A stretch of DNA of 36,764 bases from a virus. This document shows, one piece after another, positions 1-36,764 of this stretch (positions within the stretch are counted from its first letter, which is position 1; each line of letters opens with the position of its first letter). Both the position numbers and the translations under genes were made by a program. Under the pieces are notes generated by a model that saw only the letters and a list, made by a program, of their open reading frames with translations, was not told the DNA's origin and made no database searches. The stretch lies in the IMG/VR virus record IMGVR_UViG_3300045988_146803. One strand, 5' to 3'.

Positions 1-55
1 CCATAGTATACAGGAATGGCTGGCAAAAGTCAAAGAAACTACCGATAAAATCGGG
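1..55. repeat. Terminal direct repeat, left copy (identical to 36710-36764)
   Basis: CCATAGTATACAGGAATGGCTGGCAAAAGTCAAAGAAACTACCGATAAAATCGGG is present at both ends. A 55-nt length fits a k-mer assembly overlap of a circular or terminally redundant molecule. Confidence 0.97.
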
Positions 56-3000
56 GGAAACGGAGAAGTCCTAGCGAGCGTCGTAAACGATTTCGAAGAG
101 AGCAGCACCTATCACCAAATGGCTGGAGAATATGCCCATAACGTTCTATCGGGAAAGTCGACAAAGAAGGGCATGGCCGAGCAGCAGCTGGACGCAGATG
201 AGAAATCCTTCGCGGACAGCGTAGATCGTTTCATGGCAGGAAAGATTTCCACAGATACTATCCAAGTCATGAGGACTCCGCTTGTGATGAGGCTTGTAGG
301 AGCTGAAGTTCTGCCGGTTGAAATTTCTGTATCCGACTTGAAAAAAGTTTTAGTAGACAAGCATACGGATATCACTCCGGACATCATGAAACAAATTCCA
401 CGTGCACTTACGGATCCGATGATGATCTTTTCCACATACAGTGGGAAAAACGGAGAAGTGCGCAAGGTGATCGTGCTTGAGCTCAAAGATAAGAACGGGG
501 CTACCATCGTGATACCTATGGAATTGGAACGCAAGAAAGGCAACTATGAAGTAAATCAGATTACAAGTGCGTATGGGAAAACGGATAAGAAAACAAGGAG
601 AACGTCTTTTGTATGGTTCCAAAAACAATTACAGGAAGGGAAATTAGAATATGCCAATAGAAAAAAGGCTACCGACTGGATTTCTTCAGAGCAGCCCCAT
701 TGGCTCATTCCCGAAGAAAAAGTCGATAACCTTTTATCTGCTCCTAATGTAGCAAATGAGGAAGACCTTGTCAAGCTGAAAAGCGAAAATCCCACCTACT
801 ACCAGACGGTGGCAGACAAAAATCTCGTTGCCATGCATAACATAGATTTGGGAAATCTGGCAGCCGCTATCAAGTTAGGAGGGCTCCCAGTACCTTCTAT
901 TGCTGTCACTAAAAAGCAGACGTCATATACCGGATTTGGGGACGCTACCTTGATTATGAAAAAGGATACGGTAGACCCATCAAAAACCCCAGTTTTTTCC
1001 AGAGATGCATGGACAGGCGTGTTCCCTAAAGTTATTAGATTGGCCAACATGAAGAGACTGACGTCTTTTGTAGAAAAAGCCATAGAGCCGTTGCAAAAGG
1101 AGCTTCCAAGAGAAGCTGCTGATTACGGGGATATATACAATAGCTATATCTTACGCAACGCCAATAATAAGAATGGTGACGTGCAAAAGATGTTAGAGGA
1201 TTCACTGAACTCCGCAGGGTACAAATATTACTTTCTGAAAACAATAAACAAGGAGCCAAAACTAAAATGGAGAAAGAAGGGGTTAAGCAAAGAACTGATA
1301 GACCATCCCGAGATATTGCAGGCATGTCAGGGGCTTGAAAAGAAGTACGGGGAGCAGGGGCTAAAAGAGCTGTTGTACGAAGGCCCTTTTGCTATGCTGG
1401 AAGAAAGCACGGACCTCAAGAAAGCCAATGATCTGATAGTCAATGAATTATCAAAGAAGCCGGAAGGAAACGAATCACCATTCCTCAAAAGGGTACACGA
1501 ACGTCAGCAGGCCAGACTGGTAAATGGAGAAACGCTTCATTCATTGCTTTCAGACTACTTGGAAAGAGACAAGAAGGTTTTTGAAGGGGAAAGTTTTGAA
1601 CAGCAGTTAGACAAGCGAATAAAGGCCAATCAAAATACATTCAATGCCTGGAAAGAATCTTTTCGAGATGAAATGTTAGGCGAGTCTGTCATTCGGGATA
1701 GTGGCAAACCTGCAGACTTGGAGAACATAGTTGATGCCATGTTGGGAAACCTAAAAAATGCTCAAAAAGGTTTTGCCGGATTCGGCATAGGAAATATCAT
1801 AGCCAGCAGCGCCAAAAAGATAGAATCATTCGGAGAAATGCACCGGGAAGCAGATAGGAAAATGGATGAATCTACCAACATCGAGACAAGCTTGGATAAA
1901 TCGGAACAGTACACGAAGGTAAAAAACGAAATTATGGATTTCACGGACCGAATGGCTGAAGCCTACAAGTGGGAAGACCACTGGGAATCCTGTTCTGATG
2001 CATCGCAAGTTCTGATGTCCATGATGTCAGGGAAAACGTTCAAAGCATCTGCGAGAAAGTTTGGCTTCACATATTCCGCAGCGTTAGAGAAACAGGCCAA
2101 AGAAATTATAAAGGAAGTAAAGGATCTTCCCGCTAAGTATTTCGAGGCAAAGCCACAGCGCGCGGTTCGTTTCAGTGAAGTGGCTGCTGCTGTCATGCCA
2201 AAAAATGCGTCAAAAGAGATCAAAGATTATCTGAGGGCGCAAGGCGTAACCATCCGTTTATATGATCCCAGAATAGAAGGCGACCGCGAGCGAGTCACAA
2301 ATAGCGCACAAGACAGAGTAAAGCAATATTTTCAGGAAGGCAGCAATTACCAAGGTTCCTACGACAGAAACGCCAACGTCATTGAGCTTTTCGACGGTGC
2401 GAATGAATCTACAGTGATTCACGAAGGCGCTCATATGTTCCTTTCTATGCTTGAGAACATGAGTCAGATGAGCGAAGAGAATGTCGCCACCTACTTCAAC
2501 GGGGATACGGCGAAAGCACGCGCTGCATTGAAGAGCATGCGGGGCGATCTCTCTGCCATTCGTTCATGGGCCGCCTTTTCCGAAGATCACCTCTCTGAGT
2601 ACAAGGGGACTATTTTAGAGAAGGAATTCACCAAGTATGCCGAAGACATCAGAGCAGGGAAGGCCGGTGCCATGGAACGCTGGATGCAGGAACGCTTTGC
2701 CAGGGGCTTCGAAAAATACCTCATGGACGGTAGCGCACCCACCAAAGAAATGCAGGGGGTCTTCCGACGGTTCAAGAAATGGCTGACCGACATCTACAAG
2801 ACAGCAAAGAACCTAGGAAACGTAGAACTCACACCCGAGATCAAAGACATCTTCGATCGTATGATTTCCACAGAAAGCGAGATCAACGCATGGGCCGCGC
2901 AGCGAAAACTGGAAGCGATAGATAAGACCGTCAACGTGAACCAGTCCGAACTGGGTAACCTCAAGGCATGGGCTGAGAGCGTCAAGGACAAAGCTCTGGA

Positions 3001-6000
3001 GAAAGCCATGAGTTACTACCTTCATATGGTGAGAGAAGAAGCCATCGAAAACTTCAAAGCCTCCATTTCTTCTGAAGAAGAGAGAACCAGCTTTATCGAG
3101 TCTCTGGGAGAAGAGAATGAGATCTATCAGATCGAGACCATTTACAACTCCGACACATTCCCTACAAAGAAAGACCGTGACGAATTTCTCCAAATGGCCG
3201 GGTTCACAGAAAAAGATCTGAAAGAGAAGCTGAGAGCTGCTGGCGGCACTACGGAAGAACGGTGGAACAAGCACATCGAAGAGATGGTGCAGCACTATCG
3301 GGAAGAAGCATTAACCCCGGAAGCCATCAGGGGCATGGCCGAAGAAATTCTTCGATCCCCGGAAGGCATGGCCAAGAAGTCTCGCATCGAAGCCATGCTG
3401 CTTGAAAAGAAAGTTTCTGCTTACATCCATCTCGTCAATTCTATGCAGATGGAACTCAAACGGTCCAAAGACAAGAAAAAGACCGCGAGAGAAATTCGCA
3501 AGCGATTGGGACTTGTTTCCGAAAAAGAAACAACAGAGATCGACAAGCAGACAGATGTGATTGCCAAGTCGGAAGATAAGATCGCAAAGCTGGAGAAGCA
3601 GAAGAAGCTGCTAAAAGAGCAGCTTGAAAAAGCGAAAGCAGAAGCTGCAGCAGCCAAGGGCGAGAACAAGTCCAGAAAGGAATCACAGACCATTCTGGAA
3701 GGAAACATGCGAGCCCTTGAGGCCGAGCTTGAGAAGGAACGCGCCCAAAGAGCAAAGGCCGACAGCACCACAAAAGACGCAGAACTCACCGCTGCTGATC
3801 TTGCTGTGCAGCTCCAGACTATGGTAGACGGCCTCAAAGAGTCCAGAGACGCCATGCGCTTCGACATGAGGGAAATCAAAGAGGACGCCAGGAATACATT
3901 AGGCGGCGAGAAACTCTCCCACGCCACCAGCTGGCGATGGTGGGAGAACAAGGCACAGATTGCAGAAGCCCGCGCCATGAAAGCGGCCGCAGGCAATGAC
4001 TGGGAAGGCGCTGCTTATTGGAAACGTGAGCAGGCGCAGTGCCTAACCATGGCCAAGTTCGCCAGGGCAAACGAAGAAGAAATCCGTCGCACCCTTCACG
4101 GAGGCGGCGGGAAAGTCACCACGCCTCTCCTTAACGAAAACGGCATGGAGCGCTACGGCATCTTAGGCATCCTGAACCGCATATCCCGGACGGATAAACC
4201 AGTCATGATGAAGGACGACGCACGCTACTTCGTACAGCACATGGCATACGTCTTAGGGCTCACGAAGAAAGACGGCATCTTGCCTATTGACGAGAGCGGG
4301 CAGGAGAGACCTTTCAACTGGCGCTGGCTTGCTGTAGAGATGAATCCCATGCAGGCCATGGACGATGATCGCTATATGGCCGAGGATATCATTCCAGGAT
4401 GGATGAGAAGCGCCTTCGAAGGCTCTACCTCTTTGAAGCTAAAAGACCTTACCATGGACCAGTTCCGAGAAATGGCAAAAGTCATGAAGGCCGTCTACAA
4501 ATTAGGCAGGAGAGAATACGAGGGCAACACCTTAGGCACCTCTTTCGATAACGCGGCACAAAAGATCCACGATGAGATTTTAGACAACTGGACGCACCGC
4601 GTGGCCACTCCGGGACTCAAGAACCAGACCGCCACTAGCCTGGACAGGCTGGGGACAAAAATCCACAGCCTCATCAAGGACATCACACTTCCCGAGATTC
4701 TGATCGAACGACTGGGAAAGTCTGCTTATGAGTATTTTTATAAACCCATGGATAAAGCAGCTGCCCATTTGCGAGAGCTAAAGAGCGAAGCCCGAGTCAC
4801 CTTCCGGAAGAACTTCGCGATCTACTCCAGGAAAGAATGGACGGTGATCCGAAGCAAGAAGCTCTACACCGTAGGGCTAGACGAGCGCGGTAAACCCGTT
4901 TCCTACACCAAGGAGCAGCTCCTCGCCATGGCCCTGAACTTTGGCACCAAGTCCAACAGGGAACGCCTCATAGAGACCTTGTGGCTGAGCGATACCTTGA
5001 ACACCGACGAGAAAACCATACTGGACATGCTGGATAAGAACCTCACTGACAAGGACTGGGACTTCGTAGAAAGCGTATGGGAGCACCTTAATTCTTACTG
5101 GGGCGAGAGAAACAAAGTCCAGAATGATCTCTACGGCACGCCCCTAGGGAAAGTTCAGGGCGAAGATTTCACGCTGAAGTCGGGACGTGTCATCCATGGC
5201 GCGTACTATAGAATCAAGTACGATCCATTAAGCAGCACGAAGACAAGCAACTTCTCCACAACAGACATCGCCAAGATGGACATGCAGAATATTTCCTCCT
5301 TCTCCTTAGGTATGGGGAGCACCAAGCAGCGTGCAGGAACATCCGGCGGACAGAAGCTCCGCCTCGATCTCGACGTATACGTAGAGGCCGTGAACGAAGC
5401 CATGCAGCACATCGCCATGCGAGAAGCTACTGTAGACGTCTACAAGCTCCTCAACCGAAAAGAAGTCGTGGCAGCCATCGAAAACACCGCAGGTCCGGAA
5501 ACTCTTTCTCTGCTGCAGGGATGGGCCAAAGACTGCTGGCACTCCTCGATCAAGGATATGAGCGAATGGGACTCTACCCTAGGCAGAGCCCGGCGGCGCT
5601 TCAACTTCACGACGATGGGGTTCCGATTCTCCACAGCTTTACTGAATATCGGGAACATCACCGGCATGATGGAACGGATGGGAGCAGCCAATGCCCTAAA
5701 GGCCGTCGGAGATTTCTATTTTCATGGGATCATCGTAGAGCAGCGGCGATTTATTCAAACCAAGTCCACTATGATGAGAGACCGAGGGGCCACAATCGAT
5801 CGGGATATGTACATGCAGGACAGATTGCCGGTAGGGAAGAACGAGTCCGAGTTCCGCTCCAAGATCGAGCACGGCAAGTATGGCGTCGATACCTTAAACT
5901 CCAAGGCCTACTGGCTGATCCAGGCGACAGATGAAATGTTTTCCATGCCTGAATGGTTATTTACTTACAAGAGAGCCATGGCCGCTATGGAAATCGAAGG

Positions 6001-6688
6001 CAAGCTCAATAGAGACGAGATGGACGCAGAAGCCGTGAGACTGGCAGATAAAGCCGTGAGAGAGACTTTCGGATCCAATGAGACCAAAGACCAGACCAGC
6101 TTTATCAGGAAGAACGGAATTCTTGCACAGATGACCACCTTCTATAGCTACACCAGCCTTGTCACAAACCAGTTTATCCGCGCAGGGTATATCTTATACG
6201 ACAAGGGAGATGTGAAGCCGCTCCTCGCAGCCACGTGGTATTGGTGGATCCTAGGCGCTTTAGTCGAAACAGCCTTACGAGAAATCGGGGACGACTCTGA
6301 TGATGAAGATAAATGGAAGAAGAAATTCCTCCATGTTGCTGCTTCCGGCGGCCCCATTGGCGGTGTCCCTCTTGTAAGAGAAGCAGTCCCGTGGACAGTA
6401 GATTTCTTTACCGGGAAATCCTTCGGATCCGCAGCCCCAGACGCTCCATTCTTCGATACCCTAAAGCACATGGAAAAATTCCTCAAAGCCACCAAGAAAG
6501 GTGATCTCATAGAGATGGGGCGAGGAGCCACCAAAGCCATCACAAGGACATCCATACCCGTCCCGGATACCATCACAGACGCCTTCTGGAACTTCATGCG
6601 GCTTACTTGCACTGACACGGAATTCACCATGTGGGATTGGTTCAGAAAGTCACTTTGGGATAAGACGCTAAAGGAGAAGAAAAAATGA
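2..6688 (+). CDS. Giant virion/ejection 'polyvalent' protein, continuation (bases 2-55 duplicate 36711-36764); T7 gp16-position protein
   Basis: Codons from base 2 (HSIQEWLAKVKETTDKIGGNGEVLASVVNDFEESSTYHQ) are stop-free into M119 of the listed ORF and share the frame of 33186. Visible modules: a MuF_C-like module (MRTPLVMRLVGAEVLPVEISVSDLKKVLVDKHTDITPDIMKQIPRALTDPMMIF...YEVNQITSAYGK); an HExxH motif (VIHEGAHMF, nt 2420-2434) followed by ERFARGFEKYLMDG...FRRFKKWLTDIY; a long coiled coil (~3420-3900); and C-terminal hydrophobic segments (~6130-6290). Confidence 0.85.
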   Translation, partial: HSIQEWLAKVKETTDKIGGNGEVLASVVNDFEESSTYHQMAGEYAHNVLSGKSTKKGMAEQQLDADEKSFADSVDRFMAGKISTDTIQVMRTPLVMRLVGAEVLPVEISVSDLKKVLVDKHTDITPDIMKQIPRALTDPMMIFSTYSGKNGEVRKVIVLELKDKNGATIVIPMELERKKGNYEVNQITSAYGKTDKKTRRTSFVWFQKQLQEGKLEYANRKKATDWISSEQPHWLIPEEKVDNLLSAPNVANEEDLVKLKSENPTYYQTVADKNLVAMHNIDLGNLAAAIKLGGLPVPSIAVTKKQTSYTGFGDATLIMKKDTVDPSKTPVFSRDAWTGVFPKVIRLANMKRLTSFVEKAIEPLQKELPREAADYGDIYNSYILRNANNKNGDVQKMLEDSLNSAGYKYYFLKTINKEPKLKWRKKGLSKELIDHPEILQACQGLEKKYGEQGLKELLYEGPFAMLEESTDLKKANDLIVNELSKKPEGNESPFLKRVHERQQARLVNGETLHSLLSDYLERDKKVFEGESFEQQLDKRIKANQNTFNAWKESFRDEMLGESVIRDSGKPADLENIVDAMLGNLKNAQKGFAGFGIGNIIASSAKKIESFGEMHREADRKMDESTNIETSLDKSEQYTKVKNEIMDFTDRMAEAYKWEDHWESCSDASQVLMSMMSGKTFKASARKFGFTYSAALEKQAKEIIKEVKDLPAKYFEAKPQRAVRFSEVAAAVMPKNASKEIKDYLRAQGVTIRLYDPRIEGDRERVTNSAQDRVKQYFQEGSNYQGSYDRNANVIELFDGANESTVIHEGAHMFLSMLENMSQMSEENVATYFNGDTAKARAALKSMRGDLSAIRSWAAFSEDHLSEYKGTILEKEFTKYAEDIRAGKAGAMERWMQERFARGFEKYLMDGSAPTKEMQGVFRRFKKWLTDIYKTAKNLGNVELTPEIKDIFDRMISTESEINAWAAQRKLEAIDKTVNVNQSELGNLKAWAESVKDKALEKAMSYYLHMVREEAIENFKASISSEEERTSFIESLGEENEIYQIETIYNSDTFPTKKDRDEFLQMAGFTEKDLKEKLRAAGGTTEERWNKHIEEMVQHYREEALTPEAIRGMAEEILRSPEGMAKKSRIEAMLLEKKVSAYIHLVNSMQMELKRSKDKKKTAREIRKRLGLVSEKETTEIDKQTDVIAKSEDKIAKLEKQKKLLKEQLEKAKAEAAAAKGENKSRKESQTILEGNMRALEAELEKERAQRAKADSTTKDAELTAADLAVQLQTMVDGLKESRDAMRFDMREIKEDARNTLGGEKLSHATSWRWWENKAQIAEARAMKAAAGNDWEGAAYWKREQAQCLTMAKFARANEEEIRRTLHGGGGKVTTPLLNENGMERYGILGILNRISRTDKPVMMKDDARYFVQHMAYVLGLTKKDGILPIDESGQERPFNWRWLAVEMNPMQAMDDDRYMAEDIIPGWMRSAFEGSTSLKLKDLTMDQFREMAKVMKAVYKLGRREYEGNTLGTSFDNAAQKIHDEILDNWTHRVATPGLKNQTATSLDRLGTKIHSLIKDITLPEILIERLGKSAYEYFYKPMDKAAAHLRELKSEARVTFRKNFAIYSRKEWTVIRSKKLYTVGLDERGKPVSYTKEQLLAMALNFGTKSNRERLIETLWLSDTLNTDEKTILDMLDKNLTDKDWDFVESVWEHLNSYWGERNKVQNDLYGTPLGKVQGEDFTLKSGRVIHGAYYRIKYDPLSSTKTSNFSTTDIAKMDMQNISSFSLGMGSTKQRAGTSGGQKLRLDLDVYVEAVNEAMQHIAMREATVDVYKLLNRKEVVAAIENTAGPETLSLLQGWAKDCWHSSIKDMSEWDSTLGRARRRFNFTTMGFRFSTALLNIGNITGMMERMGAANALKAVGDFYFHGIIVEQRRFIQTKSTMMRDRGATIDRDMYMQDRLPVGKNESEFRSKIEHGKYGVDTLNSKAYWLIQATDEMFSMPEWLFTYKRAMAAMEIEGKLNRDEMDAEAVRLADKAVRETFGSNETKDQTSFIRKNGILAQMTTFYSYTSLVTNQFIRAGYILYDKGDVKPLLAATWYWWILGALVETALREIGDDSDDEDKWKKKFLHVAASGGPIGGVPLVREAVPWTVDFFTGKSFGSAAPDAPFFDTLKHMEKFLKATKKGDLIEMGRGATKAITRTSIPVPDTITDAFWNFMRLTCTDTEFTMWDWFRKSLWDKTLKEKKK

Positions 6689-6836
6689 TTCAACGATTTT
6701 ATTATCGGCTGATTGATTGCCAGCCATAGACAGACGTAGCGAAACGATTAGAAAGGGAAAAGCATATGATCAACACAAATTCATGTACTAAGGTTCTTGA
6801 CGTTGGCCGATGAAAGAGAAAAAAGGAGGGTAAAAA

Positions 6837-7484: not shown

Positions 7485-7507
7485 AGCAGTAGATAAGGAG
7501 GAACACA

Positions 7508-7648
7508 ATGAGCAAAAACTATGAAAAAGTAAAACACTACTACGAAGCAGGGCTCTGGAGTAAAGCCAGAGTGTATGCTGTCGTCGGCCGCTGGATCACG
7601 GAAGAAGAATATAAAGATATTACAGGAGAAGATTATGTCGTTGGATGA
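7508..7648 (+). CDS. xkdX: XkdX-family small phage protein (46 aa; below the ORF-track length cutoff)
   Basis: MSKNYEKVKHYYEAGLWSKARVYAVVGRWITEEEYKDITGEDYVVG matches the XkdX signature (YY..G.W......V..G.IT.EEY..ITG). RBS AAGGAGGA is upstream. It lies between the fibre and holin genes, as in Firmicutes phages. Confidence 0.8.
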   Translation: MSKNYEKVKHYYEAGLWSKARVYAVVGRWITEEEYKDITGEDYVVG

Positions 7649-8295: not shown

Positions 8296-8304
8296 GAGGG
8301 AAAT

Positions 8305-15419: not shown

Positions 15420-15457
15420 GAGAAGACAATACCATCTGCCCTGTATGTCATAGGGGT

Positions 15458-15610: not shown

Positions 15611-15680
15611 AAGATAAATTCACGTTTTTCTATATGAGAGTATATCACGCCCTTCATAAAAAGTCCAGAAAAGCAAGGCA

Positions 15681-27066: not shown

Positions 27067-29769
27067 ATGAAAGAAACCATCTATCTCATGCAGTCATCCT
27101 TTGCGACCGGCGAAGTTTCCCCGGAAGTCGCCAGCCGCATAGACATGGAGAAATACCAGGCCGCTTTACTGCAGGCCGAGAACTGCTATATCAGGCCTTA
27201 TGGCGCTGTATACAAAAGACCCGGATCGATCTATTGCGGCATGGCCAAGAAGAATAAAGTTCGTCTGATTGAATTCAAGTCTACTGTGAACCATGCCTTT
27301 CTCCTTGAAGTAGGAGAAGGGTATATCCGCATCTGGAAGGACGGAAAATTTACCAATCAGGAAATCGTGACCCCTTACAAGGAATCCGAACTTCCCAAGC
27401 TCCGCACCTGCCAGAGCGCCGACATCATGTACATCGCCTCCGGCGCCCATCCCGTCATGCAGCTCAAACACTATTCTGACACCGACTGGCGCTTCGAAGA
27501 AATGGTGATGAATAGTCAGTACTTCGATGAGTTCTTAACAGTTAGTAACAACGTGGTAGACGAGATATGGAATAAAGCCGGAACATACGCATGGGAATGC
27601 CACAAGGCAGGGAACTATGCCGTGACCGTAGCGGGCGGCGGTGGCGGCGGAGCCGATACCGTGAGCCACTACAGAGACAGCAGATACAAAGAGGACGGAA
27701 GTACGGTAGAAGCTGCCGGTGGTATCGGCGGGAATGGTGCTGCTGTATCACAATCTGTCTACTGCAAAGAAAATACCACTTACACCATCACCGTAGGGGA
27801 CGGGGGAGAAAAAGGATCACCGGGAAATTCCGGAGGAAATTCCACCGCCTTCGGACTCACCGCGCAGGGGGGCGGCGGGGGACAACTGGGTACATTCACC
27901 GGTACAAGAAGGCCACACAAACCCTACACCGTATATACGGGGCATGCGGGTGAAGCAGGCGTCTCCTACGGTAATGGCGGACAGGGAAGTCATAACAAAG
28001 GGAATCCAGGATGGGTGGCCGTCAAATCCATGGATGAGCCTACCCTGACTATCTCCGGCACCGCAGGTGAAGTCACGCTCTCCTCGGATAAACCCTTCTT
28101 CTCTGCGGACATGAAAGGCATGTGGATGAAGATTTCTCAGGACATCGCCTCCAAGTCCGTCACCGCCAGCGGGGCCATGACCACAGATCCCATACCCGTA
28201 GGAAACGGATGGAAGATCATCACCCATGGCACATGGACGGGGCAGGTGGTCATCCAGAAATCCACGAATGGCGGCGAATGGAAAGACTTCAGGACCTACA
28301 AATCGAATGACGACAACAACGTCAGCGAATCCGGCACCGTCGATGAAGCAGACAATGTCAAAATGAGACTTGTCACCACTGCAGGTAAAGCCGACCTCAC
28401 ATCGACCGCCTACACCAAGTCCGGCATCATTCAGATCGAAACCGTGAATTCAGCAACCAGCGCCACCTGCCTTGTGAAAAAAGTCATTGGTCAGGCGGGG
28501 AAAGTCGACAGCTACTCCTTCGGCGCATGGAACGAAAAATACGGCTATCCAAGGACCGTGGGATTCTTCCAAGACAGATTGATATTTGCCGGGACGAAGA
28601 CGCAGCCATACGTCCTATGGATGAGCAAGACCGGAGACTACAACAATTTCTCCGTCGAAAAAGCCTCCGGCACCGTGACAGACGACAGCGCCATCTGCCT
28701 TTCCTTTATTTCCCGTCAGCAGGCGGAGATCAAGCACATCTGCCCGGCAAGCGACCTCTTCGTCTTGACCGACTCCAATGAATGGATCGTTTCCGGCGGC
28801 AGCACCGTTACACCGTCCAAATGCACCAACAAGGCGCAGACCTTCCGCGGATGCACGGAAGTCGAACCTATCTCCATCGGCAGCCGTCTGATCTACGTGC
28901 AGAAACGGTCCCAGACCGTGCGAGACATGGCCTATTCTTTTGAGACCGATTCCTACGACGGCATGGACCTTACCCTTTTGGCCAAGCACCTTTTGAGAGG
29001 AAAGACCATCGTAGACGCTGCCTACATGCAGGATCCCGACTCCAGACTGTATTTCGTCCGTTCCGACGGGGAAATCATCTGCCTCGCCTACATCAATGAC
29101 CAGAAAGTCTATGCATGGTCCCATATCATCACAAAAGGGAAGTATCTTTCCGTCTGCACCGTGACAGCTGAAGAGACCGACGAAGTCTACACCGCCGTCG
29201 AAAGAAACGGTAAAACCTATATCGAGAAGATGGGAACAGACAAAGACTCCCAAGATCCGAAAGACTACATCATGACCGACTGCTCCAAAGTTCTCACCTT
29301 TGATGAGCCTGACGATGCAGCGTCAGTCGACTGGATCACTGGGACAGTTTCCGTATTGGCAGACGGGAAATTCTTCGAAAACGTAGAAATCAAAGAGGGG
29401 ACAGTGACACTTCCCACCAAAGTATCCTACATGATCATCGGCTATCCCTACCGGATGACCATCGAACTGCCTAACGTAGAAATTCAGGCACAGAACGGCA
29501 CCATGCAGGGGAGATATAAAAACGTCCGCACCGTTTCCCTAAGACTGCTGCACACCTTAGGAGGCAGTATCGGAAACGGCGTAGGAAGAAATGACACCAT
29601 CAAGTACGAGGAGCTCTCCAACCAGAAGATCTTCCTCTACACAGGAGATAAAGAAATCACCATACCCAACCAGGGCGTAGAGAAGAACGGGCGAGTCATC
29701 ATCACCTCTTCCGATCCCTACCCCTTCTATCTGGCAGCATTGATCAGAGGAGTGATCGTCAGTGAATAA
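27067..29769 (+). CDS. Nozzle / tail tubular protein B-like protein with inserted glycine-rich domain
   Basis: 900 aa in the T7 gp12 position. N-terminus SSFATGEVSPEVASRIDMEKYQAALLQAENCYIRPYGAVYKRPGS. Glycine-rich insert at aa ~168-321 (nt ~27568-28030). Confidence 0.65.
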   Translation: MKETIYLMQSSFATGEVSPEVASRIDMEKYQAALLQAENCYIRPYGAVYKRPGSIYCGMAKKNKVRLIEFKSTVNHAFLLEVGEGYIRIWKDGKFTNQEIVTPYKESELPKLRTCQSADIMYIASGAHPVMQLKHYSDTDWRFEEMVMNSQYFDEFLTVSNNVVDEIWNKAGTYAWECHKAGNYAVTVAGGGGGGADTVSHYRDSRYKEDGSTVEAAGGIGGNGAAVSQSVYCKENTTYTITVGDGGEKGSPGNSGGNSTAFGLTAQGGGGGQLGTFTGTRRPHKPYTVYTGHAGEAGVSYGNGGQGSHNKGNPGWVAVKSMDEPTLTISGTAGEVTLSSDKPFFSADMKGMWMKISQDIASKSVTASGAMTTDPIPVGNGWKIITHGTWTGQVVIQKSTNGGEWKDFRTYKSNDDNNVSESGTVDEADNVKMRLVTTAGKADLTSTAYTKSGIIQIETVNSATSATCLVKKVIGQAGKVDSYSFGAWNEKYGYPRTVGFFQDRLIFAGTKTQPYVLWMSKTGDYNNFSVEKASGTVTDDSAICLSFISRQQAEIKHICPASDLFVLTDSNEWIVSGGSTVTPSKCTNKAQTFRGCTEVEPISIGSRLIYVQKRSQTVRDMAYSFETDSYDGMDLTLLAKHLLRGKTIVDAAYMQDPDSRLYFVRSDGEIICLAYINDQKVYAWSHIITKGKYLSVCTVTAEETDEVYTAVERNGKTYIEKMGTDKDSQDPKDYIMTDCSKVLTFDEPDDAASVDWITGTVSVLADGKFFENVEIKEGTVTLPTKVSYMIIGYPYRMTIELPNVEIQAQNGTMQGRYKNVRTVSLRLLHTLGGSIGNGVGRNDTIKYEELSNQKIFLYTGDKEITIPNQGVEKNGRVIITSSDPYPFYLAALIRGVIVSE

Positions 29770-30232
29770 CAGCTACTACGGCGTGGACATTCGCACCATC
29801 GACAGCCTTGCCATGGCCGACCTTTTATCCCAGATCCTCGCGGGAAACATGCGAAAAGAAGACAGAGAAGAATTAGAAGCCCAGGGGCGCATGCCTTATG
29901 GCGGCCTCTATGAAAGCATGACAACTTCCATAGAAGCCTACTATGCCATTCATGAGAACATGCCGCTCGCTGCCTTCGGAATCGGCCTATGCCCGGAGGG
30001 ATGCTCCATCTGGATGCTCGGAACTACTATGTGCGAGCGCCACAAGAAAGCCCTGGTCGCTTGCATGCAAGACTACATCAAGGACAGCTTGAAGAAATAC
30101 AAAGCCCTTACCAATTACATTTCCAAAGACAACACCAAAGCCCTCCGCGTCATTAAAAAGATGGGAGCCGCCTTTGGGGAAGAAGTAGAAACGGGCGGGA
30201 AAACCTTCGTCCGCTTCACATTAAAGGAGTAA
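29762..30232 (+). CDS. Virion-associated protein (T7 gp13 position)
   Basis: GTG start overlaps the nozzle stop. 156 aa (T7 gp13 is 138 aa, from memory). No motif firmly recognised. Confidence 0.5.
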   Translation: MNNSYYGVDIRTIDSLAMADLLSQILAGNMRKEDREELEAQGRMPYGGLYESMTTSIEAYYAIHENMPLAAFGIGLCPEGCSIWMLGTTMCERHKKALVACMQDYIKDSLKKYKALTNYISKDNTKALRVIKKMGAAFGEEVETGGKTFVRFTLKE

Positions 30233-30234
30233 CT

Positions 30235-30915
30235 ATGTGCAGCGTATCCGCCGCCCTGATCGGCTTAACCGCCGCGCAGGGCATCACATCTATGGCCTCT
30301 GCTCATCAGCAGGCCAAAGCACAGTCTGCTTATTACAATTCTCAGGCAGAAGCCGCAGAGCAGAACGCGAGAATCGCAGACAAACAGAGAGAGCAGATTT
30401 CTGACCAGTACCTGCAGAAACAGCAGCAGCTTGACGCCAGAAGACGATTAGTCATTGGCCAGCATGCGGCAGAAGCAGGAGCAAGCGGCTTCACAAGCTC
30501 CGGATCCATGCAGGACATGGACGCTGCCACGATTGACGAATGGAGAAATTCCTCCATGAATCTTTTAGGCAATCAGAGAAATGACACCAAGAGCGCCTAC
30601 ATCAACCAGGTGAATTACATCAATCAGGCAAACAGCGCAAGAGCTGCTGCCTACAACGCCAGACAGCAGGGGAAGCAGGCCATGTTTGGCACCCTCCTTT
30701 CCACGGCTGCTTCCATCTACGGCGTAGCCAAGACCTACGGGAATGCAGCTAAACAGCCAGCCTCCGGCGGACTTCACCACCAGGCGGCTATGAGCGGAAT
30801 GCCGGAGACCATGACAGACCAGGTATATGCCATGAATCAGTACAAGCCGCAGAAACTTTCCTTGACCAAGAGTCCCTACTCGTGGCTAGGTGGTGGCTTC
30901 AAGATCGGGAGGTAA
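30235..30915 (+). CDS. Internal virion protein (T7 gp14 position)
   Basis: 226 aa, Ala/Gln-rich helical (QAKAQSAYYNSQAEAAEQNARIADKQREQISDQYLQKQQQLDARRR...). It has the composition and position typical of ejection/core proteins. Confidence 0.6.
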   Translation: MCSVSAALIGLTAAQGITSMASAHQQAKAQSAYYNSQAEAAEQNARIADKQREQISDQYLQKQQQLDARRRLVIGQHAAEAGASGFTSSGSMQDMDAATIDEWRNSSMNLLGNQRNDTKSAYINQVNYINQANSARAAAYNARQQGKQAMFGTLLSTAASIYGVAKTYGNAAKQPASGGLHHQAAMSGMPETMTDQVYAMNQYKPQKLSLTKSPYSWLGGGFKIGR

Positions 30916-30918
30916 AGC

Positions 30919-33174
30919 ATGAAACTCTCTCAATTTTCAGGGGATATCAATAAGAACATCATGAAAGGAAAGATCATCCCGACTACGACACTAGAAAGCG
31001 CAGGAGGGAATACCGCAGGACTTACCACCTTAGGGAAGGCTGCAGGTGCCGTATCGGACATGCTGGGGAAGGTATGGCTGAAAGACCAGAACGATAAAAT
31101 CTTCGACGCAAAAAACGATTACGAGCAGCGCATCAATACCCTCATGGACGATGAGAACACCGGCCTTTTCAATACCCATCAGGGCAAGGCTGCCGAGAAC
31201 CTGCAGAAAGACTACACCGACCAGGAACAGAAGATTTATCAGCAGGTCCTGCAGGATCATGGGATCTCTTCTGATTACGCCGTCCGAGCTTTCGGGGAAC
31301 AGAGAGCACAGTCACAGACATCGAACTTTCGTATGATCGACAAGTACCAGCGAAAGCAGATGGAAGACTACGCAGGAAATCAGATTTCCTTGATGACCAG
31401 CAACATGGTGAACCAGTCCGTCAAAGACCCCGACTCCCTCATCACGAACTTCGGAAGCTGGGAGAAGAATACCACTGCCATTCTGGCAGGCCTCAGCATG
31501 GATAGCGCAGCTATTGACGTCAAAATGAAAGCACTGAAGAACGATAAAGCCAAAGAGATCATGCAGTCCTATCTCACCACTGGCGATTACAGCGCGGGCC
31601 TCAATGCCATCGCCTACATGAAATCACAGGGGATAGACGAACCGACACTCAAGGCTTACAAAGACCAGTTCCTTCAGAAGAAAATGACGCGGGAAATTAA
31701 AAGCAGCGCCGAAGACTATGTCAAAGGAAACGGACTGAACCTCACTACCATGACATGGGAACAGTTCCGGGATGCATGGAGGAAAGACCACCCGACGCCG
31801 GTCCCTCAAGGGAAAGGCAGCGTCACGGGAAATCAGATCGCGGAATTTGCCAGAAACAACTACACCGAGGGGGATCAGTGGATGGGAAGCGTCACCAAAG
31901 ATCCCACGATCCAGTGCGATTCATGGACCGCTGACGTCTACGCCAAGACCGGCCTTTTCCCGGACGGGACAATCACGCACGGTTCCGACTTCGGGGACGC
32001 CTACCACGAAGCGGGCGACGGCTATGAACCACAGCCCGGAGACTTCATTGATGGGGAAAAGCACGTCGGCATTTATTTAGGGAACGGCCAGTACATGGCC
32101 AGAAACTCCTCCGGCGGCATCCACATTGGCAGCATGGACGAGTGGAATGAATGGTTCGGGAAACCCATTGGCTATGGATCCGTGGCAGAGGCCAAAGGCG
32201 AAGCGGCGGACGACATGTCAGACGAAGAACGAGCCGAGCTGCAGGACAAGAGCGACGCTGCCCTAAAGCAGCAGTACGCCGAGATCCGCTCAAGCCAAGT
32301 AACCTACATCCAGAGCCAGGTGCGGAACATCACCAAAGGAATCCTCGAAATGGAGCAGAACGGTTCCACGCCCGGCCAGGCGTATGAGTACGCCGCGGAT
32401 ATTGTGGACAACGATCCCTTGCTGAAAGACTCTTCGGCGGGCGTCACGCTCTTAGGCCGTCTGATGAATCAGAAGAGAACCTACGAAAATTCACAGAACA
32501 GAGCTGCCAATGTAGGGAGAGGACTTGATACCAGCGGCTGCCTCAAAGAGAAAGGGTTCAACGCCTTAGAAGGATTTATCGGGACGAAAATCAATTCCAT
32601 CGAAGACCTCGACAACATCATCAAAGACCTGCAGGAAGAAGGCGTCTACCTCACTGCAGAGCAGGATGCCAAGATTCGGAAAGATGTCATCGACTGCGGA
32701 AACGGCGTGGGAACCTTTGCCGTCAAGATCCCGGACGATGACGCTGCCATTGCGGCCATGTGCTACACCAATACCTCCGCCGTCACCTCGACAGCGAAAA
32801 TGCTCATTAAGAGAGAAATCATGGATTTCAAAAACGAGCAGGGGAGAGATCCCGACAACGACGAACTCCGCACCATCTACTACGATGTGATCGGGAAAGA
32901 GAGCCTCGACAGCACCGGCAAAACGAAAATCGGCGGGATTAACATCTTCGGTGTAAACCTTTTCGGGGACGACTACGAAGCTCCAACCATGAGCGAAGCG
33001 CAGGCCTACGACGATCACATCAGGGAAACGTCGCAGGCCGTAGACGAAGATGGAAATCCGAATGGTTTCTACATTGACGTGGACTACGGGAACGGAAAGA
33101 CTGAGACCAAGTGGGTGTCTGATGAACAGATGAGACAGATTTCCAATGGAGAATTAAGCGTATTCGATATTTGA
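30919..33174 (+). CDS. Internal virion protein with NlpC/P60-type peptidoglycan peptidase domain (T7 gp15 position)
   Basis: 751 aa (T7 gp15 is 747 aa, from memory). Catalytic-looking Cys in TIQCDSWTADVY (codon 31915-31917) and His in GEKHVGIYLGNGQYM (codon 32062-32064). Confidence 0.7.
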   Translation: MKLSQFSGDINKNIMKGKIIPTTTLESAGGNTAGLTTLGKAAGAVSDMLGKVWLKDQNDKIFDAKNDYEQRINTLMDDENTGLFNTHQGKAAENLQKDYTDQEQKIYQQVLQDHGISSDYAVRAFGEQRAQSQTSNFRMIDKYQRKQMEDYAGNQISLMTSNMVNQSVKDPDSLITNFGSWEKNTTAILAGLSMDSAAIDVKMKALKNDKAKEIMQSYLTTGDYSAGLNAIAYMKSQGIDEPTLKAYKDQFLQKKMTREIKSSAEDYVKGNGLNLTTMTWEQFRDAWRKDHPTPVPQGKGSVTGNQIAEFARNNYTEGDQWMGSVTKDPTIQCDSWTADVYAKTGLFPDGTITHGSDFGDAYHEAGDGYEPQPGDFIDGEKHVGIYLGNGQYMARNSSGGIHIGSMDEWNEWFGKPIGYGSVAEAKGEAADDMSDEERAELQDKSDAALKQQYAEIRSSQVTYIQSQVRNITKGILEMEQNGSTPGQAYEYAADIVDNDPLLKDSSAGVTLLGRLMNQKRTYENSQNRAANVGRGLDTSGCLKEKGFNALEGFIGTKINSIEDLDNIIKDLQEEGVYLTAEQDAKIRKDVIDCGNGVGTFAVKIPDDDAAIAAMCYTNTSAVTSTAKMLIKREIMDFKNEQGRDPDNDELRTIYYDVIGKESLDSTGKTKIGGINIFGVNLFGDDYEAPTMSEAQAYDDHIRETSQAVDEDGNPNGFYIDVDYGNGKTETKWVSDEQMRQISNGELSVFDI

Positions 33175-33185
33175 GAGGAATCACA

Positions 33186-36100
33186 ATGGACGAAGAAATT
33201 TTAGGAAGCGTGCTGCATGGGATTAAGCCAAAGGACTACACACCTATCCAGGTGAGACCGACACCGGAATTTGGCGGAATTCAGCTCACCGAAGAACAGC
33301 AGGCCAAGAAGGACAATACGGAATCCGTCAAGGATGGAGAGATCCTGCCCTTAAACGGTTTTGCCGACACCGTAGAAGCCCAGTGGGAATCCGCCAAAGA
33401 CCTTGTGAAATCCACCGACGTATACAAGAACCTTTTCGGAAACAGCGCACCGGATGATAACCGCCTCGAACAGTCTGAGAAATTAGGAAGTGCGCTAGGC
33501 ATTGCCCCTCAGCTGATTGCCTCCGATCCGGATATGTACAAGGCAGCCGTCACCACCTATGAGAGACAGAGGAATGCAGCCGCACTGAACAACCAGCCAT
33601 TTTCTGCCAAGACTTTGAATGAACTCTACCCGGAACTCGACACGGAAGACCCCGTGGCCACCACCATCGCTTTGAAGGACTATACCAACATCCTGAAAAA
33701 CCGAGAAGCAGCAGCGCAGGGCGCGGCGGTTTATACCATGCCGGAAAGCAAGCTCACCGATCTTTCTAATGTCATCGGCTATCTCTACGACACCGGCACC
33801 CATTTTGCGGGCACCGCCTACGATGCCGGGCAGGCACTCGACGCACAGAGCGAGCTCATGTACAAAGCTTCCATCGGGGAAATCTCCGATGAAGAAGTAG
33901 AGAAAGCCATTCCAGGACTGATGAATGTCCAGAAATCATACAACGCAGAAATCGGGGACTCCTACGTGGCCAAGATTGTAGGGGAAACCATCTCCCAGCT
34001 TTCCATGCAGAAGAATATGATCATGCGCGGCGCAGCAGAAATCCTCGCTCCGATCGCTCCATTGGCGCAGCCTATCTTAGCGGCCACCAAAACAAACTTG
34101 CCGCAGATCGCTACCTTAGGCGCTGCATCCGCAGCGGGCGCCGTAGGAGCCACAGGCGCCGTGTCAGGAGCAGCCGTCACAGGAGCGGCCGCACTGACAG
34201 GGCTCATCGCCTTAGGCACTGCTTCCGTCTTCACAGGAACCTATAGAGCAGAAGCTGGACAGGCGTATTGGGATTGGCGCACCAAAAAGGATAAAAACGG
34301 GAAATCTGTTTATACCCGAGAGCAGGCCATTGGCCATGCCAAGAGAGTCGGAAGAATCAATGCAGCCATTGAAACCGGTGCATGGGAGCTCGCACTCAAG
34401 GGCATCACCAAAGTATGGGGGAGCGACGCAGCCAAAGCTGTCATCAAGAACGAAGCTGCCATGAAGAAACTGATCGGCGCAGGGAGAGCAGCCGTAGGAG
34501 CTAAAGCCATTGGATACGGTGCGAAACAGTTCGCCAAAGTGGCGGCGCCTGAGATCGCAGAAGAAGGTCTGCAGTCTCTTTCTGCAGATATCGATACAAA
34601 CCTCTTTGGGAAAGAAAATGTTCCCGTAAGAGAGATGATGGGGAATGCCTTGGACGCCATGATCGAAGCTGTTCCTTCCGTTGTTGGTATGTCGATCGGC
34701 GGTGCTTCTTTAGCAGGCGCAGGGGCACATAGAGCCATGAAGAGAATCACTGGCCTCTCCGAAATGAAAGACGCCGTTATCGAATTCAAACGTGAGAACG
34801 AAAGATCCATGCTGCAGAAACTCATGGATCTCCGCTCCGAATCGTCCCTTTACAAAAAAGCACCGGAAACCTACCGGAAGACGCTGCAGAACCAGCTCGA
34901 TCATACCGGTTCCGGCACGCTTTACATCGACGCTTCCGCAGCGGCCGAAAACGAAAAGACACACGATGCCTTAAACAAGCTCGTAGAAGATGGCACGATC
35001 ACCGCTAAAGAATTGGATGACGCCATCAAGACCGGCAAGCCCTTAGAGGTAGAGGCAGGGAAATACATGCAGACCGCCACCCCTGAAACCCATGAAGCCC
35101 TTTCCGACTACACCACCATGGACAAAGGAGAAAAAACGATCCATGCCATCCGAGAAGAGCGGCAGCGCATGAAAGACATGATCGACATTGTCACCATGAC
35201 ACGCGAAAAAAGAGAAGCGGTCGCTGCAGAAAAAATCTTGAACGACCACTTCTCCGATGATACCGATATCGGAAGAGAAGATAGGGACACCGCAAGAGAA
35301 ATTCTTTCCGGCGGTTTAGATCATATCGAAGACACATGCAAGACCATCCTTCAGGAAGCCAAAGACGCATGGGGAAAGCTGACCGGCGTCAAAGAACTCC
35401 AGGACTACATGGAACGGAGAAAGACACAGGACGCCAACACATCCAATGAAAAAGGCGTCGATATGTTCGACGTCGGGGAAGGGAAAGATCGGGTACATCT
35501 CAGAGTTTCCAAGAACCCAGATTGGTATCAGGATTTTTATGGTACATACGGAAGAGCACCAAACCAGCGTGAACTCTACGATATCGCCCAAGAGAAAATC
35601 ATTGCCGAGAATGATAAAGGCGATGAAGAATCCAAAGTGGCCATCGCCGAGATCGAAGAAGCCAAGAAGAGAGTCGAGTCCATCGAGAGAGTGAGTGAGA
35701 CGCTGAAATCCTTAAACAAAGAAGATCTCATCGCCCAGACTCTCTTAGATCCAGAGACCTACGAAGAAGCCTACAAGCCTCTCCTCGCGCAGATTCAGGC
35801 CGCAGGGAACGGGGCTGTCACCAAAGCCGCGAGAGACTCCGCTTTAATCCTGGCAAAGCTCGCAGAGAATTTCCATAGGAACTACGGCGTGCCATTGAAA
35901 TTGGCCATGATTGCCGCTGGTGAAGTCAGTCCGGAGACCGCGCATCAGCTGAACCAGTCCGCCATCGAGAACGAACTGCAGCTTGTGAAAGAGAAATACT
36001 GGAATACTGAGGAATGGATGAAAGCCCCGGACGGTACACTGACAAAGCTGACCGAGCGCCAGTGGCTGATTACCCATAGCGAAACTTTCAGGGAATGGTT

Positions 36101-36764
36101 TGGAGATTGGGAAACCGTCGAAAAGGTCACAAAGCTATACTATGGAAATCCAATCGTTATGACAGAAGGAGGATTTAAAGAAAAATTAGAGAAGGCAGCA
36201 CGAGATAACGGAATAAATATAGCCGCAGATGCCGATTCCATACGAAAAGAGATTAAGACCATTTTCAAAAGTCTGTACCCAGGTAAAGAATTATCAAAGG
36301 GGTACAGAGAACCGGGACGGGTAAAAAATCTTGACGGTGAGTTAATCAGTATCACTGTTTCATCGGCTAAGGAATTAAGGCATCACTCCACAAATCCGAG
36401 GACATTATTTTTGGCGGTTAACCTCGATTCTGTTATTGAAAACGCAACATTCCTTTACGAAGAAGTTAAAGATGAATCCAGAGTCAAAAAGTCAAATCAA
36501 ACAACATTGGCTTATAGGTATTATGCGACACGCGTTGTGGTTAATGGGGAAGAATGTATAGCCAGAATTATTGTAAGAAAAGATAAAAACGGCAATTTAT
36601 ACTTTTATGATGGTGACATTACAAGTAATGAACAAATAAAAAAAGACCTACCTAAATACCTGTATCCGGATACCAAAACCGGGCAGAATTTAGGTAAGTC
36701 TCTCTTTACCCATAGTATACAGGAATGGCTGGCAAAAGTCAAAGAAACTACCGATAAAATCGGG
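33186..36764 (+). CDS. Giant virion/ejection 'polyvalent' protein, N-terminal 1,193 codons (no stop in window; continues across the junction to stop at 6688; 3,403 aa in total)
   Basis: ATG 33186 lies 6 nt after GAGAGGA. Read by eye, the frame is stop-free to base 36764. It is absent from the ORF track only because it never terminates in the window. Minus-strand ORFs here look like shadow ORFs. It has a Gly/Ala-rich hydrophobic stretch (IATLGAASAAGAVGATGAVSGAAVTGAAALTGLIALGTASVF, ~34040-34240). A FREWFGDWE linker (~36080-36115) precedes a beta-rich module (YYATRVVVNGEECIARIIVRKDKNGNLYFYDGDIT). Confidence 0.85.
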   Translation, partial: MDEEILGSVLHGIKPKDYTPIQVRPTPEFGGIQLTEEQQAKKDNTESVKDGEILPLNGFADTVEAQWESAKDLVKSTDVYKNLFGNSAPDDNRLEQSEKLGSALGIAPQLIASDPDMYKAAVTTYERQRNAAALNNQPFSAKTLNELYPELDTEDPVATTIALKDYTNILKNREAAAQGAAVYTMPESKLTDLSNVIGYLYDTGTHFAGTAYDAGQALDAQSELMYKASIGEISDEEVEKAIPGLMNVQKSYNAEIGDSYVAKIVGETISQLSMQKNMIMRGAAEILAPIAPLAQPILAATKTNLPQIATLGAASAAGAVGATGAVSGAAVTGAAALTGLIALGTASVFTGTYRAEAGQAYWDWRTKKDKNGKSVYTREQAIGHAKRVGRINAAIETGAWELALKGITKVWGSDAAKAVIKNEAAMKKLIGAGRAAVGAKAIGYGAKQFAKVAAPEIAEEGLQSLSADIDTNLFGKENVPVREMMGNALDAMIEAVPSVVGMSIGGASLAGAGAHRAMKRITGLSEMKDAVIEFKRENERSMLQKLMDLRSESSLYKKAPETYRKTLQNQLDHTGSGTLYIDASAAAENEKTHDALNKLVEDGTITAKELDDAIKTGKPLEVEAGKYMQTATPETHEALSDYTTMDKGEKTIHAIREERQRMKDMIDIVTMTREKREAVAAEKILNDHFSDDTDIGREDRDTAREILSGGLDHIEDTCKTILQEAKDAWGKLTGVKELQDYMERRKTQDANTSNEKGVDMFDVGEGKDRVHLRVSKNPDWYQDFYGTYGRAPNQRELYDIAQEKIIAENDKGDEESKVAIAEIEEAKKRVESIERVSETLKSLNKEDLIAQTLLDPETYEEAYKPLLAQIQAAGNGAVTKAARDSALILAKLAENFHRNYGVPLKLAMIAAGEVSPETAHQLNQSAIENELQLVKEKYWNTEEWMKAPDGTLTKLTERQWLITHSETFREWFGDWETVEKVTKLYYGNPIVMTEGGFKEKLEKAARDNGINIAADADSIRKEIKTIFKSLYPGKELSKGYREPGRVKNLDGELISITVSSAKELRHHSTNPRTLFLAVNLDSVIENATFLYEEVKDESRVKKSNQTTLAYRYYATRVVVNGEECIARIIVRKDKNGNLYFYDGDITSNEQIKKDLPKYLYPDTKTGQNLGKSLFTHSIQEWLAKVKETTDKIG
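36710..36764. repeat. Terminal direct repeat, right copy (identical to 1-55)
   Basis: Exact 55/55 match to the window start. Confidence 0.97.

Follow-up and report, generated by a model that had tools for sequence, protein, structure and literature searches.

A giant polyvalent protein with an apparently replaceable central block at the gp16 position in a podophage of Dialister or other Veillonellaceae

The DNA stretch analyzed in this study (the window; 36,764 nucleotides [nt] of the IMG/VR record IMGVR_UViG_3300045988_146803) encodes a protein of 3,403 amino acid (aa) residues, hereafter termed the giant, in which domains known from polyvalent proteins sit in an apparently replaceable block between two conserved parts. 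The giant is a clear new example of the polyvalent protein class and belongs to the family represented by Bbp10 of phage BPP-1, but is not a demonstrable homologue of T7 gp16. We regard it as probable that the giant is an internal virion protein of a temperate podophage, encoded at the gp16 position and organized as a three-part polyvalent carrier that is packaged and ejected. An initial annotation, made from the sequence of the window, had read the protein as a polyvalent mosaic in the position of an ejection protein, and this reading is borne out by three Pfam families, the gene order and a cassette recognized in at least 10 relatives.

The two ends of the window are identical over 55 nt (1-55 = 36710-36764) and thus the contig is circularly closed; it represents a circularly permuted phage genome of 36,709 bp. 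After joining the ends, a single open reading frame (ORF) starts at the ATG at 33186, which is preceded by GAGAGGA, runs across the junction and terminates with the stop codon at 6688, confirming the 3,403-aa re-joined protein of the initial annotation. The ends of the contig fall within the variable cargo of the giant gene (aa 1176-1193), and the ORF is found in the window in two parts:

33186..36764, + strand: 5' part of the giant ORF, aa 1-1193, reaching through the 55-nt terminal duplication and continuing at the window start
2..6688, + strand: 3' part of the giant ORF, aa 1176-3403 plus the stop codon

A variable cargo block between conserved flanks

The giant was compared with 20 related loci by tblastn and by sliding identity. 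The identity to a Dialister prophage (L012) was 91-99% over aa 1-900 and 2001-3403 and 23-75% over aa 901-2000. In another relative (L011), the flanks were 94-100% identical, PBECR5 and the next 340 aa were missing, and a second LPD3 was present instead. The block of high DNA identity stops at nt 2939 of the gene (aa 979) in L012, L011 and L009 alike, and the identity restarts at nt 5868/5869 (aa 1956) or, in L011, at nt 6091. The left edge coincides with a WFGDWE motif; phrog_30335 matches aa 931-978, and a WFGDWE-related motif was found upstream of the HExxH module (see below) in 26 of the 101 giant representatives. The more distant relatives keep the N-terminal module to aa ~905-950 and everything from aa ~1946-1958 on, and their slots hold 134-620 aa of other content, namely LPD3, LPD23, eCIS_core or a weak match to ART-PolyVal (E 2.6e-5, below the cut-off). 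Altogether, the slot corresponding to aa 980-1955 varies among at least 10 relatives while the flanks are conserved. Judged from these alignments, aa 980-1955 is a true cassette, replaceable between the backbone parts of aa 1-979 and 1956-3403. A sharply bounded internal cargo slot with recurrent breakpoints is modestly new. The following features were assigned to this block and its left edge:

36096..36113, + strand: WFGDWE motif, aa 971-976, left edge of the variable block; the conserved DNA stops 3 codons later in three relatives
36240..36602, + strand: LPD3, aa 1019-1139, cargo (Pfam PF18798; E 1.9e-11, 44.6 bits against a cut-off of 27)
356..673, + strand: MuF_C, aa 1294-1399, cargo (Pfam PF18819; E 3.4e-21, 75.7 bits against a cut-off of 27.6)
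812..1318, + strand: PBECR5, aa 1446-1614, cargo (Pfam PF18814; E 1.7e-36)
1319..2341, + strand: cargo without assigned function, aa 1615-1955 (about 340 aa); phrog_22978 matches aa ~1746-1946

LPD3, MuF_C and PBECR5 all exceed the curated cut-offs of Pfam, so that the giant carries at least two disparate domains of the polyvalent repertoire, and all three families were defined on polyvalent proteins (Iyer et al., 2017). LPD3 had been absent from the list of the initial annotation. On the other hand, the MuF_C-like module proposed there at ~119-700 encloses the Pfam match at 356-673, which was recovered by the profile search suggested for the re-joined protein, and the conserved-looking block LVAMHNIDLGNLAAAIKLGGLPVPSIAV (LVAMHNIDLG...) turned out to be the start of PBECR5. 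As MuF_C belongs to the PBECR nuclease-like clade (PMC5512222), the giant carries two such domains. In the alignment of PBECR5 from the giant and five homologues, H1454, S1474 and the T of DAWT are conserved in all 6 sequences. The cargo domains are predicted to be metal-independent RNases of the BECR fold. The last part of the cargo (aa 1615-1955) has no match in Pfam or NCBIfam and shares 23-32% identity with L012; the corresponding part is missing from L011.

The composition of the giant also bears on whether it is a purely structural core or ejection protein, in which the 'effector' domains would be degenerate spacers or parts that fill the capsid or span the envelope, with nothing enzymatic being delivered. 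About 1,900 aa of the protein (the N-terminal module, the spacer and the C-terminal module) are helical and bear no enzymatic signature, LPD3 has no predicted activity, and the MuF_C of phage Mu itself has been described as catalytically inactive (PMC5512222). Nevertheless, the cargo is the fastest-changing part of the giant and is swapped between near-identical backbones, which is not expected of a spacer. Moreover, PBECR5 retains the conserved His and Ser, and domains of the ART type and of other conflict systems occupy the same slot in the relatives. We consider a purely structural protein unlikely.

We also observed a second, different HExxH motif (LVHE[IL]QHxIQ), which is not present in the giant of the window, in the cargo of giants P0042 (aa 1057), P0043 (aa 1263), P0048 (aa 1273), P0050 (aa 1166) and P0040 (aa 288). 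This motif may represent another metallopeptidase-like cargo type. In the cargo of L010, a weak SprT/DUF6782 match was found at a second HExxH.

The HExxH module at the right edge of the cargo block

The cargo block is followed by a module bearing the motif that the initial annotation had assigned to a zincin:

2342..2896, + strand: conserved HExxH module, aa 1956-2140; HEGAH (aa 1982-1986) at 2420-2434, E2072 and E2079 at 2690-2713

HEGAH was found exactly at 2420-2434. H1982, E1983, H1986, E2072 and E2079 (the Glu residues of QERFARGFE) are invariant or nearly so in the alignments of 14, 33 and 35 sequences, as are H-E-x-x-H and E..FARGFE..G.AP among the 33-35 diverse members. BPP-1 Bbp10 also has the module followed by the C-terminal module, as do the giants of Vibrio, Xanthomonas, Caulobacter, Pseudomonas, Cobetia, Acinetobacter and cyanobacterial podophages. 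The module being shared with the BPP-1-like giants, we regard it as a part of the backbone and not of the cargo. The module, which the initial annotation had listed among those fused to an ejection protein, is thus not variable cargo.

The profile of the module core (alignment A2) was scored against 1.84 billion representatives and recovered 10,583 cluster representatives at E<=1e-3 and 8,573 at E<=1e-10. The proteins bearing the module are mostly of 2,000-4,700 aa, and some possess 2-4 copies. In 33 members, the Pfam partners were LPD3 (13/33), ART-PolyVal (6), MuF_C (5) and LPD23 (5), followed by PBECR5, PBECR3, PBECR1, ddrB-ParB, SLT and RadC. A homologue search with aa 1880-2140 additionally retrieved small proteins of ~414-435 aa that join PBECR3 or PBECR5 to the HExxH module (Neisseria proteins, P0002); one of them is encoded in the chromosome of Neisseria sicca and another in a prophage remnant beside an integrase. 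The module occurs in thousands of giant phage proteins and has no Pfam model, which leaves a gap in annotation, and we regard its size and its backbone status as modestly new.

In the AlphaFold2 (AF2) model of the module, the mean predicted local distance difference test (pLDDT) value was 72, and 87-94 in the core. The model runs from a beta-hairpin through the HExxH helix and a helical insert to a helix bearing E2072 and E2079 (strands at model residues 81-84 and 89-92, HExxH helix at 98-117, Glu helix at 186-205; only two strands were predicted). The predicted topology, a conserved HExxH helix after beta-strands with a downstream Glu helix, agrees with the description of the metallopeptidases in polyvalent proteins, a group of divergent clades in which inserts of variable kind separate the two helices (Iyer et al., PMC5512222).

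Two readings other than that of a self-processing protease need to be weighed here. According to the first, the module is not a peptidase but a helical partner that binds metal or nucleic acid and regulates or targets the neighboring PBECR nucleases. Neither profile nor fold searches linked the module to a zincin, so that of the zincin assignment in the initial annotation the motif was confirmed and the fold was not. Large and small proteins alike show a tight pairing of the module with PBECR1, 3 or 5, and its second half weakly resembles the LPD1 family, as one member matches LPD1 (E 0.014) on the FARGFE helix; in gp47 of the Stx phage phi24B, an HEWFH motif is followed by LPD1 about 80 aa later. 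The module may therefore comprise an unmodelled HExxH half and an LPD1-like half, albeit the support for such a link through the HEWFH region of gp47 is negligible (hhalign probability of 1.6% between the two HExxH regions). What disfavors a non-peptidase is that an invariant H-E-x-x-H helix after beta-strands together with an invariant Glu on a later helix constitutes the defining gluzincin arrangement, and that polyvalent metallopeptidases are known as divergent clades with variable inserts (Iyer et al., PMC5512222). We find this reading quite unlikely.

The second reading takes the module as an envelope-degrading enzyme, for instance a peptidoglycan peptidase that aids wall crossing. Podophage ejection modules need cell-wall hydrolases, a wall-degrading role has been given to the metallopeptidase of gp47 by the authors of the phi24B study (bioRxiv 10.64898/2026.04.10.717836), and the module resides in the conserved backbone instead of the cargo. 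Nevertheless, the neighboring gene already supplies a dedicated hydrolase (NlpC/P60 in the window; SLT in L007 and BPP-1), and no similarity to known peptidoglycan peptidases was found. The occurrence of the module also points to a link with nuclease domains: a PBECR domain lies directly upstream of it in BPP-1, Carin1 and Ab9, and the small PBECR3/PBECR5 proteins mentioned above occur as stand-alone proteins of bacterial chromosomes with no virion context. An envelope-degrading role appears very unlikely to us.

Matches to DUF6782 and YgjP-like metallopeptidases turned up among the members but could not be assigned to the HExxH module itself, and three candidates that were checked lacked them.

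The N-terminal module, the spacer and the C-terminal module

The remainder of the backbone comprises the following features:

33186..36122, + strand: N-terminal backbone module (N-module), aa 1-979; 91-99% identical to L012 and 34% identical to L007 over aa 9-905 (E 1e-129)
34029..34241, + strand: Gly/Ala-rich hydrophobic stretch, aa 282-352, candidate membrane-inserting segment; Kyte-Doolittle maximum of 1.76 at aa 325-343
3419..3901, + strand: charged, proline-free helical segment, coiled-coil-like, aa 2315-2475; heptad score, weak FlxA and SMC-like matches
3914..6685, + strand: C-terminal backbone module (C-module), aa ~2480-3403, all-alpha; phrog_9880 (E 9.6e-78), pLDDT of 70.6 in the AF2 model
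6221..6277, + strand: C-terminal hydrophobic helix, aa 3249-3267; Kyte-Doolittle value of 1.35, the third highest in the protein

Outside this phage lineage, the only homologues of the N-module found were a few distant proteins, which possess LPD3 or LPD23 as well. The four most hydrophobic 19-residue windows on the Kyte-Doolittle scale are aa 325-343 (1.76), 491-509 (1.36), 3249-3267 (1.35) and 282-300 (1.33), and L007 also has a hydrophobic stretch at the position of aa 282-352. The hydrophobic segments proposed for both ends of the protein are thus among the top windows, but the N-terminal one alone passes 1.6, the usual threshold for a membrane-spanning segment.

The segment of aa 2315-2475 contains no proline and 43% charged residues. 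Its hydrophobic score at heptad positions a/d was 0.366 against 0.241 +/- 0.037 in the shuffled sequences and was reached by 1 of the 300 shuffles, by a crude home-made measure. A coiled coil, as claimed for 3420-3900 in the initial annotation, is plausible from these properties, and the claim is partly confirmed.

The giant has a second phrog_9880 match (E 6.8e-35), and tblastn detected counterparts of the C-module in bbp10 of BPP-1, Pseudomonas phage AF, and Caulobacter, Xanthomonas and Vibrio phages with E values down to 8e-40. No resemblance of its AF2 model to PDB entries was found by Foldseek, the best E value being 0.31, to unrelated transporters. The authors of the study on PhiXacm4-11 likewise report no similarity to solved structures for their gp35 of 2,300 aa.

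Genomic context of the giant gene

The genes upstream of the giant gene are all on the + strand and arranged in the order of terminase, T7-type portal, protease/scaffold, capsid protein, tail tube A, tail tube B, gp13-like protein, gp14-like protein and NlpC/P60 protein. The positions of the genes that bear on the assignment are as follows:

20510-21925, + strand: terminase
22134-23912, + strand: T7-type portal
27067-29769, + strand: tail tube B, 900 aa, with an inserted Gly_rich_2 domain at aa 171-317
29762-30232, + strand: gp13-like protein (Pfam PF11090)
30235-30915, + strand: gp14-like protein (Pfam PF24072)
30919-33174, + strand: 751-aa protein in the gp15 position, NlpC/P60 (Pfam PF00877, E 2.7e-5)

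The giant gene thus lies in the virion-gene context of a portal-terminase phage, with the terminase, portal, capsid, tail-tube and gp13/gp14-like genes immediately upstream on the same strand. As this order parallels gp13-gp14-gp15-gp16 of T7, the giant gene occupies the gp16 position. The genes of the upstream ejection module (29762..33174) match the PHROG families 308 and 418, both of 'internal virion protein'. A holin, a GH25 endolysin and a tyrosine integrase are encoded after the giant gene, indicating that the phage is temperate.

Comparison with known systems

The polyvalent protein class was described in 2017, and packaging and injection were predicted for it (Iyer, Burroughs, Anand, de Souza and Aravind, PMC5512222). 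Like the phage-type polyvalent proteins, the giant combines several unrelated conflict-type domains (here LPD3, MuF_C and PBECR5) in one polypeptide, is encoded among virion genes, has a conserved HExxH module as a hub and shows mosaic domains among orthologues. It departs from them in that a single internal slot with fixed junctions, set in a conserved backbone at the ejection position, holds the variable domains, and in that the Pfam model of the polyvalent metallopeptidase (PF18818) does not match the HExxH module. The main text of PMC5512222 has no mention of T7 gp16, internal virion proteins or BPP-1.

The closest known counterparts are the BPP-1-like giants (Bbp10, Carin1 gp32, Acinetobacter Ab9, OANV1 gp16, Pseudomonas AF and Xanthomonas CP2-like; PHROG 9880), which share the gp16 position. 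In BPP-1, Carin1, Ab9 and OANV1, the genes for small internal virion proteins are followed by that for a lysozyme/transglycosylase protein and then by the giant of 2,052-2,986 aa. The HExxH module (28-33% identity) and the C-module (about 24%) occur in the same order in these proteins and in the giant of the window, with a PBECR domain just upstream of the HExxH module; the tblastn matches to bbp10 cover aa 1947-2136 and 2656-3285, which places the giant in the Bbp10-like family. The polyvalent domains of the BPP-1-like giants are LPD22 plus PBECR1, LPD22 plus PBECR5, or GNAT plus PBECR5. In contrast, the giant of the window has a lineage-specific 979-aa module at the N-terminus where LPD22 is found in the others, a larger cargo (LPD3, MuF_C, PBECR5 and the unassigned part) and a host that is a Firmicute with an outer membrane, while the BPP-1-like phages infect Proteobacteria. 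In databases the BPP-1-like giants are labelled 'crystallin beta/gamma motif' or 'lysin', neither of which is supported by anything found in this study.

A giant polyvalent protein with MuF_C is also known from another podophage, phi24B, of which gp47 (2,811 aa according to the preprint, 2,807 aa in our translation) contains LPD5, LPD1, MuF_C and LPD38. Gp47 was seen by mass spectrometry in purified virions but not in the cryo-EM reconstruction, and was proposed to be an ejection protein (bioRxiv 10.64898/2026.04.10.717836). The two proteins differ in the backbone, the other domains (LPD5, LPD38) and the gene context. Thus, the idea of a giant polyvalent protein acting as an ejection protein is already in the phi24B preprint of 2026, the class and most of the domain families date from 2017, and the giant opens no new class; the Dialister host is modestly new.

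The likeness to T7 gp16 resides in the gene position after the gp13-like, gp14-like and gp15-sized proteins, in the large and mostly helical protein with hydrophobic segments, and in the presence of a hydrolase in the module. The giant is, in contrast, 2.6 times longer, its hydrolase is encoded by the neighboring gene, and nuclease-type cargo is absent from T7 gp16. No SLT or lysozyme match corresponding to the N-terminal lytic transglycosylase of T7 gp16 was detected in the giant with Pfam. As for the T7-type ejection protein of the initial annotation, the gene order agrees with it, but no similarity to T7 gp16 in sequence or fold was found. N4, also a podophage, packages and ejects its virion RNA polymerase, a protein of about 3,500 aa. 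This polymerase carries a fused HExxH metallopeptidase domain, and its relatives bear PBECR or ART domains (Iyer et al., PMC5512222). Unlike in N4, the virion module is unrelated here and no RNA polymerase module was found in the giant by the Pfam, PHROG and NCBIfam scans.

A proposed mode of action

We propose that the backbone (the N-module, the HExxH module, the charged helical spacer and the C-module) would serve to bring the giant into the capsid and to let it cross, or assemble in, the envelope of the host. Related phages exchange the cargo block of aa 980-1955, which is bounded by the WFGDWE junction and the HExxH module, through recombination. The giant would be ejected before or together with the DNA, whereupon the adjacent HExxH module would cleave it and set free the cargo domains, predicted RNases whose targets early in infection would be RNAs of the host or of competitors. 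The steps from packaging and ejection to proteolytic release and RNase activity, with its targets, are here proposed on the basis of the polyvalent-protein model, the precedents of T7 and N4, and the presence of phi24B gp47 in virions.

Several points weigh against this proposal. The presence of the giant or a close orthologue in virions, as well as its ejection, is deduced indirectly. MuF_C is the only region that aligns significantly with phi24B gp47 (29% identity, E 4e-11), and no similarity to T7 gp16/gp15 or to any solved structure was found by phmmer against PDB or by Foldseek with the C-module model. Only aa 325-343 passes the threshold for a membrane-spanning segment, and LPD3 and about 1,900 aa of the backbone have no assigned activity. 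The protease role of the HExxH module is suggested by the motif and its predicted topology: no Pfam peptidase family was matched by the giant at E<=1 or by 9 module sequences at E<=10, no PDB sequence was matched in the profile search with the module, and Foldseek of its model against PDB gave a best E value of 0.69 with no peptidase or zincin, where the long helical insert may mask a small core. Against BFVD, Foldseek with the module retrieved only other unannotated phage giants. The structural comparison recommended by the initial annotation, carried out with predicted models of the HExxH module and the C-module, yielded neither a zincin nor a match to a solved structure.

The proposal may be extended to podophage giants in the ejection position in general. 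These could have a dedicated effector slot, bounded on the left by a T-x-x-F-x-x-WFGDWE junction and on the right by the HExxH/LPD1-like module as the common release protease, with effectors recombining at the junctions as in polymorphic toxins. This generalization is tentative, and we lean against it at present. If it is true, the HExxH module, with more than 8,500 clusters and no Pfam model, would be a main processing enzyme for phage-injected proteins. The phage of the window offers a tractable case, as one injected protein may furnish a temperate phage of the human-associated gut bacterium Dialister with a changeable enzyme repertoire, and near-identical backbones with different cargos in sequenced isolates represent natural 'swap' experiments.

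Hosts and relatives

The host scan covered one genome per species. Prophage copies were found in the chromosome of Dialister sp. i34-0019-2H8, Dialister sp. Marseille-QA0723, two uncultured Dialister, a Veillonellaceae bin and Megasphaera elsdenii. The copy in Dialister sp. i34-0019-2H8 (L012) is 95% identical in the C-module and about 80% over the whole protein. From these matches, the host of the phage is Dialister or other Veillonellaceae (Firmicutes). Veillonellaceae, as members of Negativicutes, possess an outer membrane, with which an ejection module of the T7 style is consistent. A Gram-positive host, which was considered from the flanking genes, was rejected, as the hosts are Veillonellaceae with an outer membrane. 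No close phage relative was found by megablast of 25 kb against GenBank phages, nor was any relative of the N-terminal 955 aa among them by tblastn.

Other copies of the lineage (L011, L013, L014, L015 and L017) come from metagenome bins assigned to Fusicatenibacter, Treponemataceae, Paludibacteraceae and Agathobacter. These assignments probably reflect misbinning, because the matches in isolate genomes fall in Dialister and Megasphaera.

The C-module homologues are often called as separate ORFs of ~1,000 aa, and we considered whether the giant is a fusion of two genes. This was rejected, since the gene is one continuous ORF of 2,590-3,589 aa in eight bacterial genome assemblies. Frame changes were found in the giant gene of L007, L009 and L010, and the splits in metagenome scaffolds probably reflect assembly errors or frameshifts. 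In the protein collection, many homologues end at about 1,150-1,350 aa, like the cut of the contig analyzed here. Strain-level variation of the cargo may be what breaks the assemblies in this block.

A prophage remnant in a bacterial chromosome (L002:5160-11308) has the same flanks as the intact prophage L007, namely Amidohydro_1, AdoHcyase, IF-2B, PNP_UDP_1 and HSP33. All that is left is an integrase and a central portion of the giant gene covering MuF_C, LPD23, PBECR5, the HExxH module and part of the N-module, with the C-module missing. The remnant may be a retained fragment like the host-acquired polyvalent proteins of Iyer et al.

Other genes in the window and its relatives

Downstream of the giant gene, some relatives encode the reverse transcriptase RVT_1 or an Mtd-like protein, mtd_2nd (L008:10201-11382; L010:6906-9338). 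These genes suggest diversity-generating retroelements as in BPP-1 and support kinship with the BPP-1 group. Neither RVT_1 nor an Mtd-like gene was seen in the window. In L009, of which the giant is about 74-94% identical to that of the window, two radical-SAM genes (13708-16548), which are not present in the window, lie between the giant and the lysis genes.

The type of wall hydrolase in the gp15-position protein is swapped among the relatives, being NlpC/P60 in the window and L009, and SLT in L007 (2876-5083) and bbp11 of BPP-1. In BPP-1-like phages, tail fibre or spike genes come after the giant. The region between the giant gene and the holin (7798-8295) in the window (6689-8300) contains a single ORF of 215 aa (6837-7484) with no Pfam match, and the receptor-binding function may reside in tail tube B with its Gly_rich_2 insert. 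Finally, an ORF of 255 aa at 15711-16478 matches REP_ORF2-G2P (PF23343, E 3.6e-13), a family of replication initiators that is unexpected in a tailed podophage.

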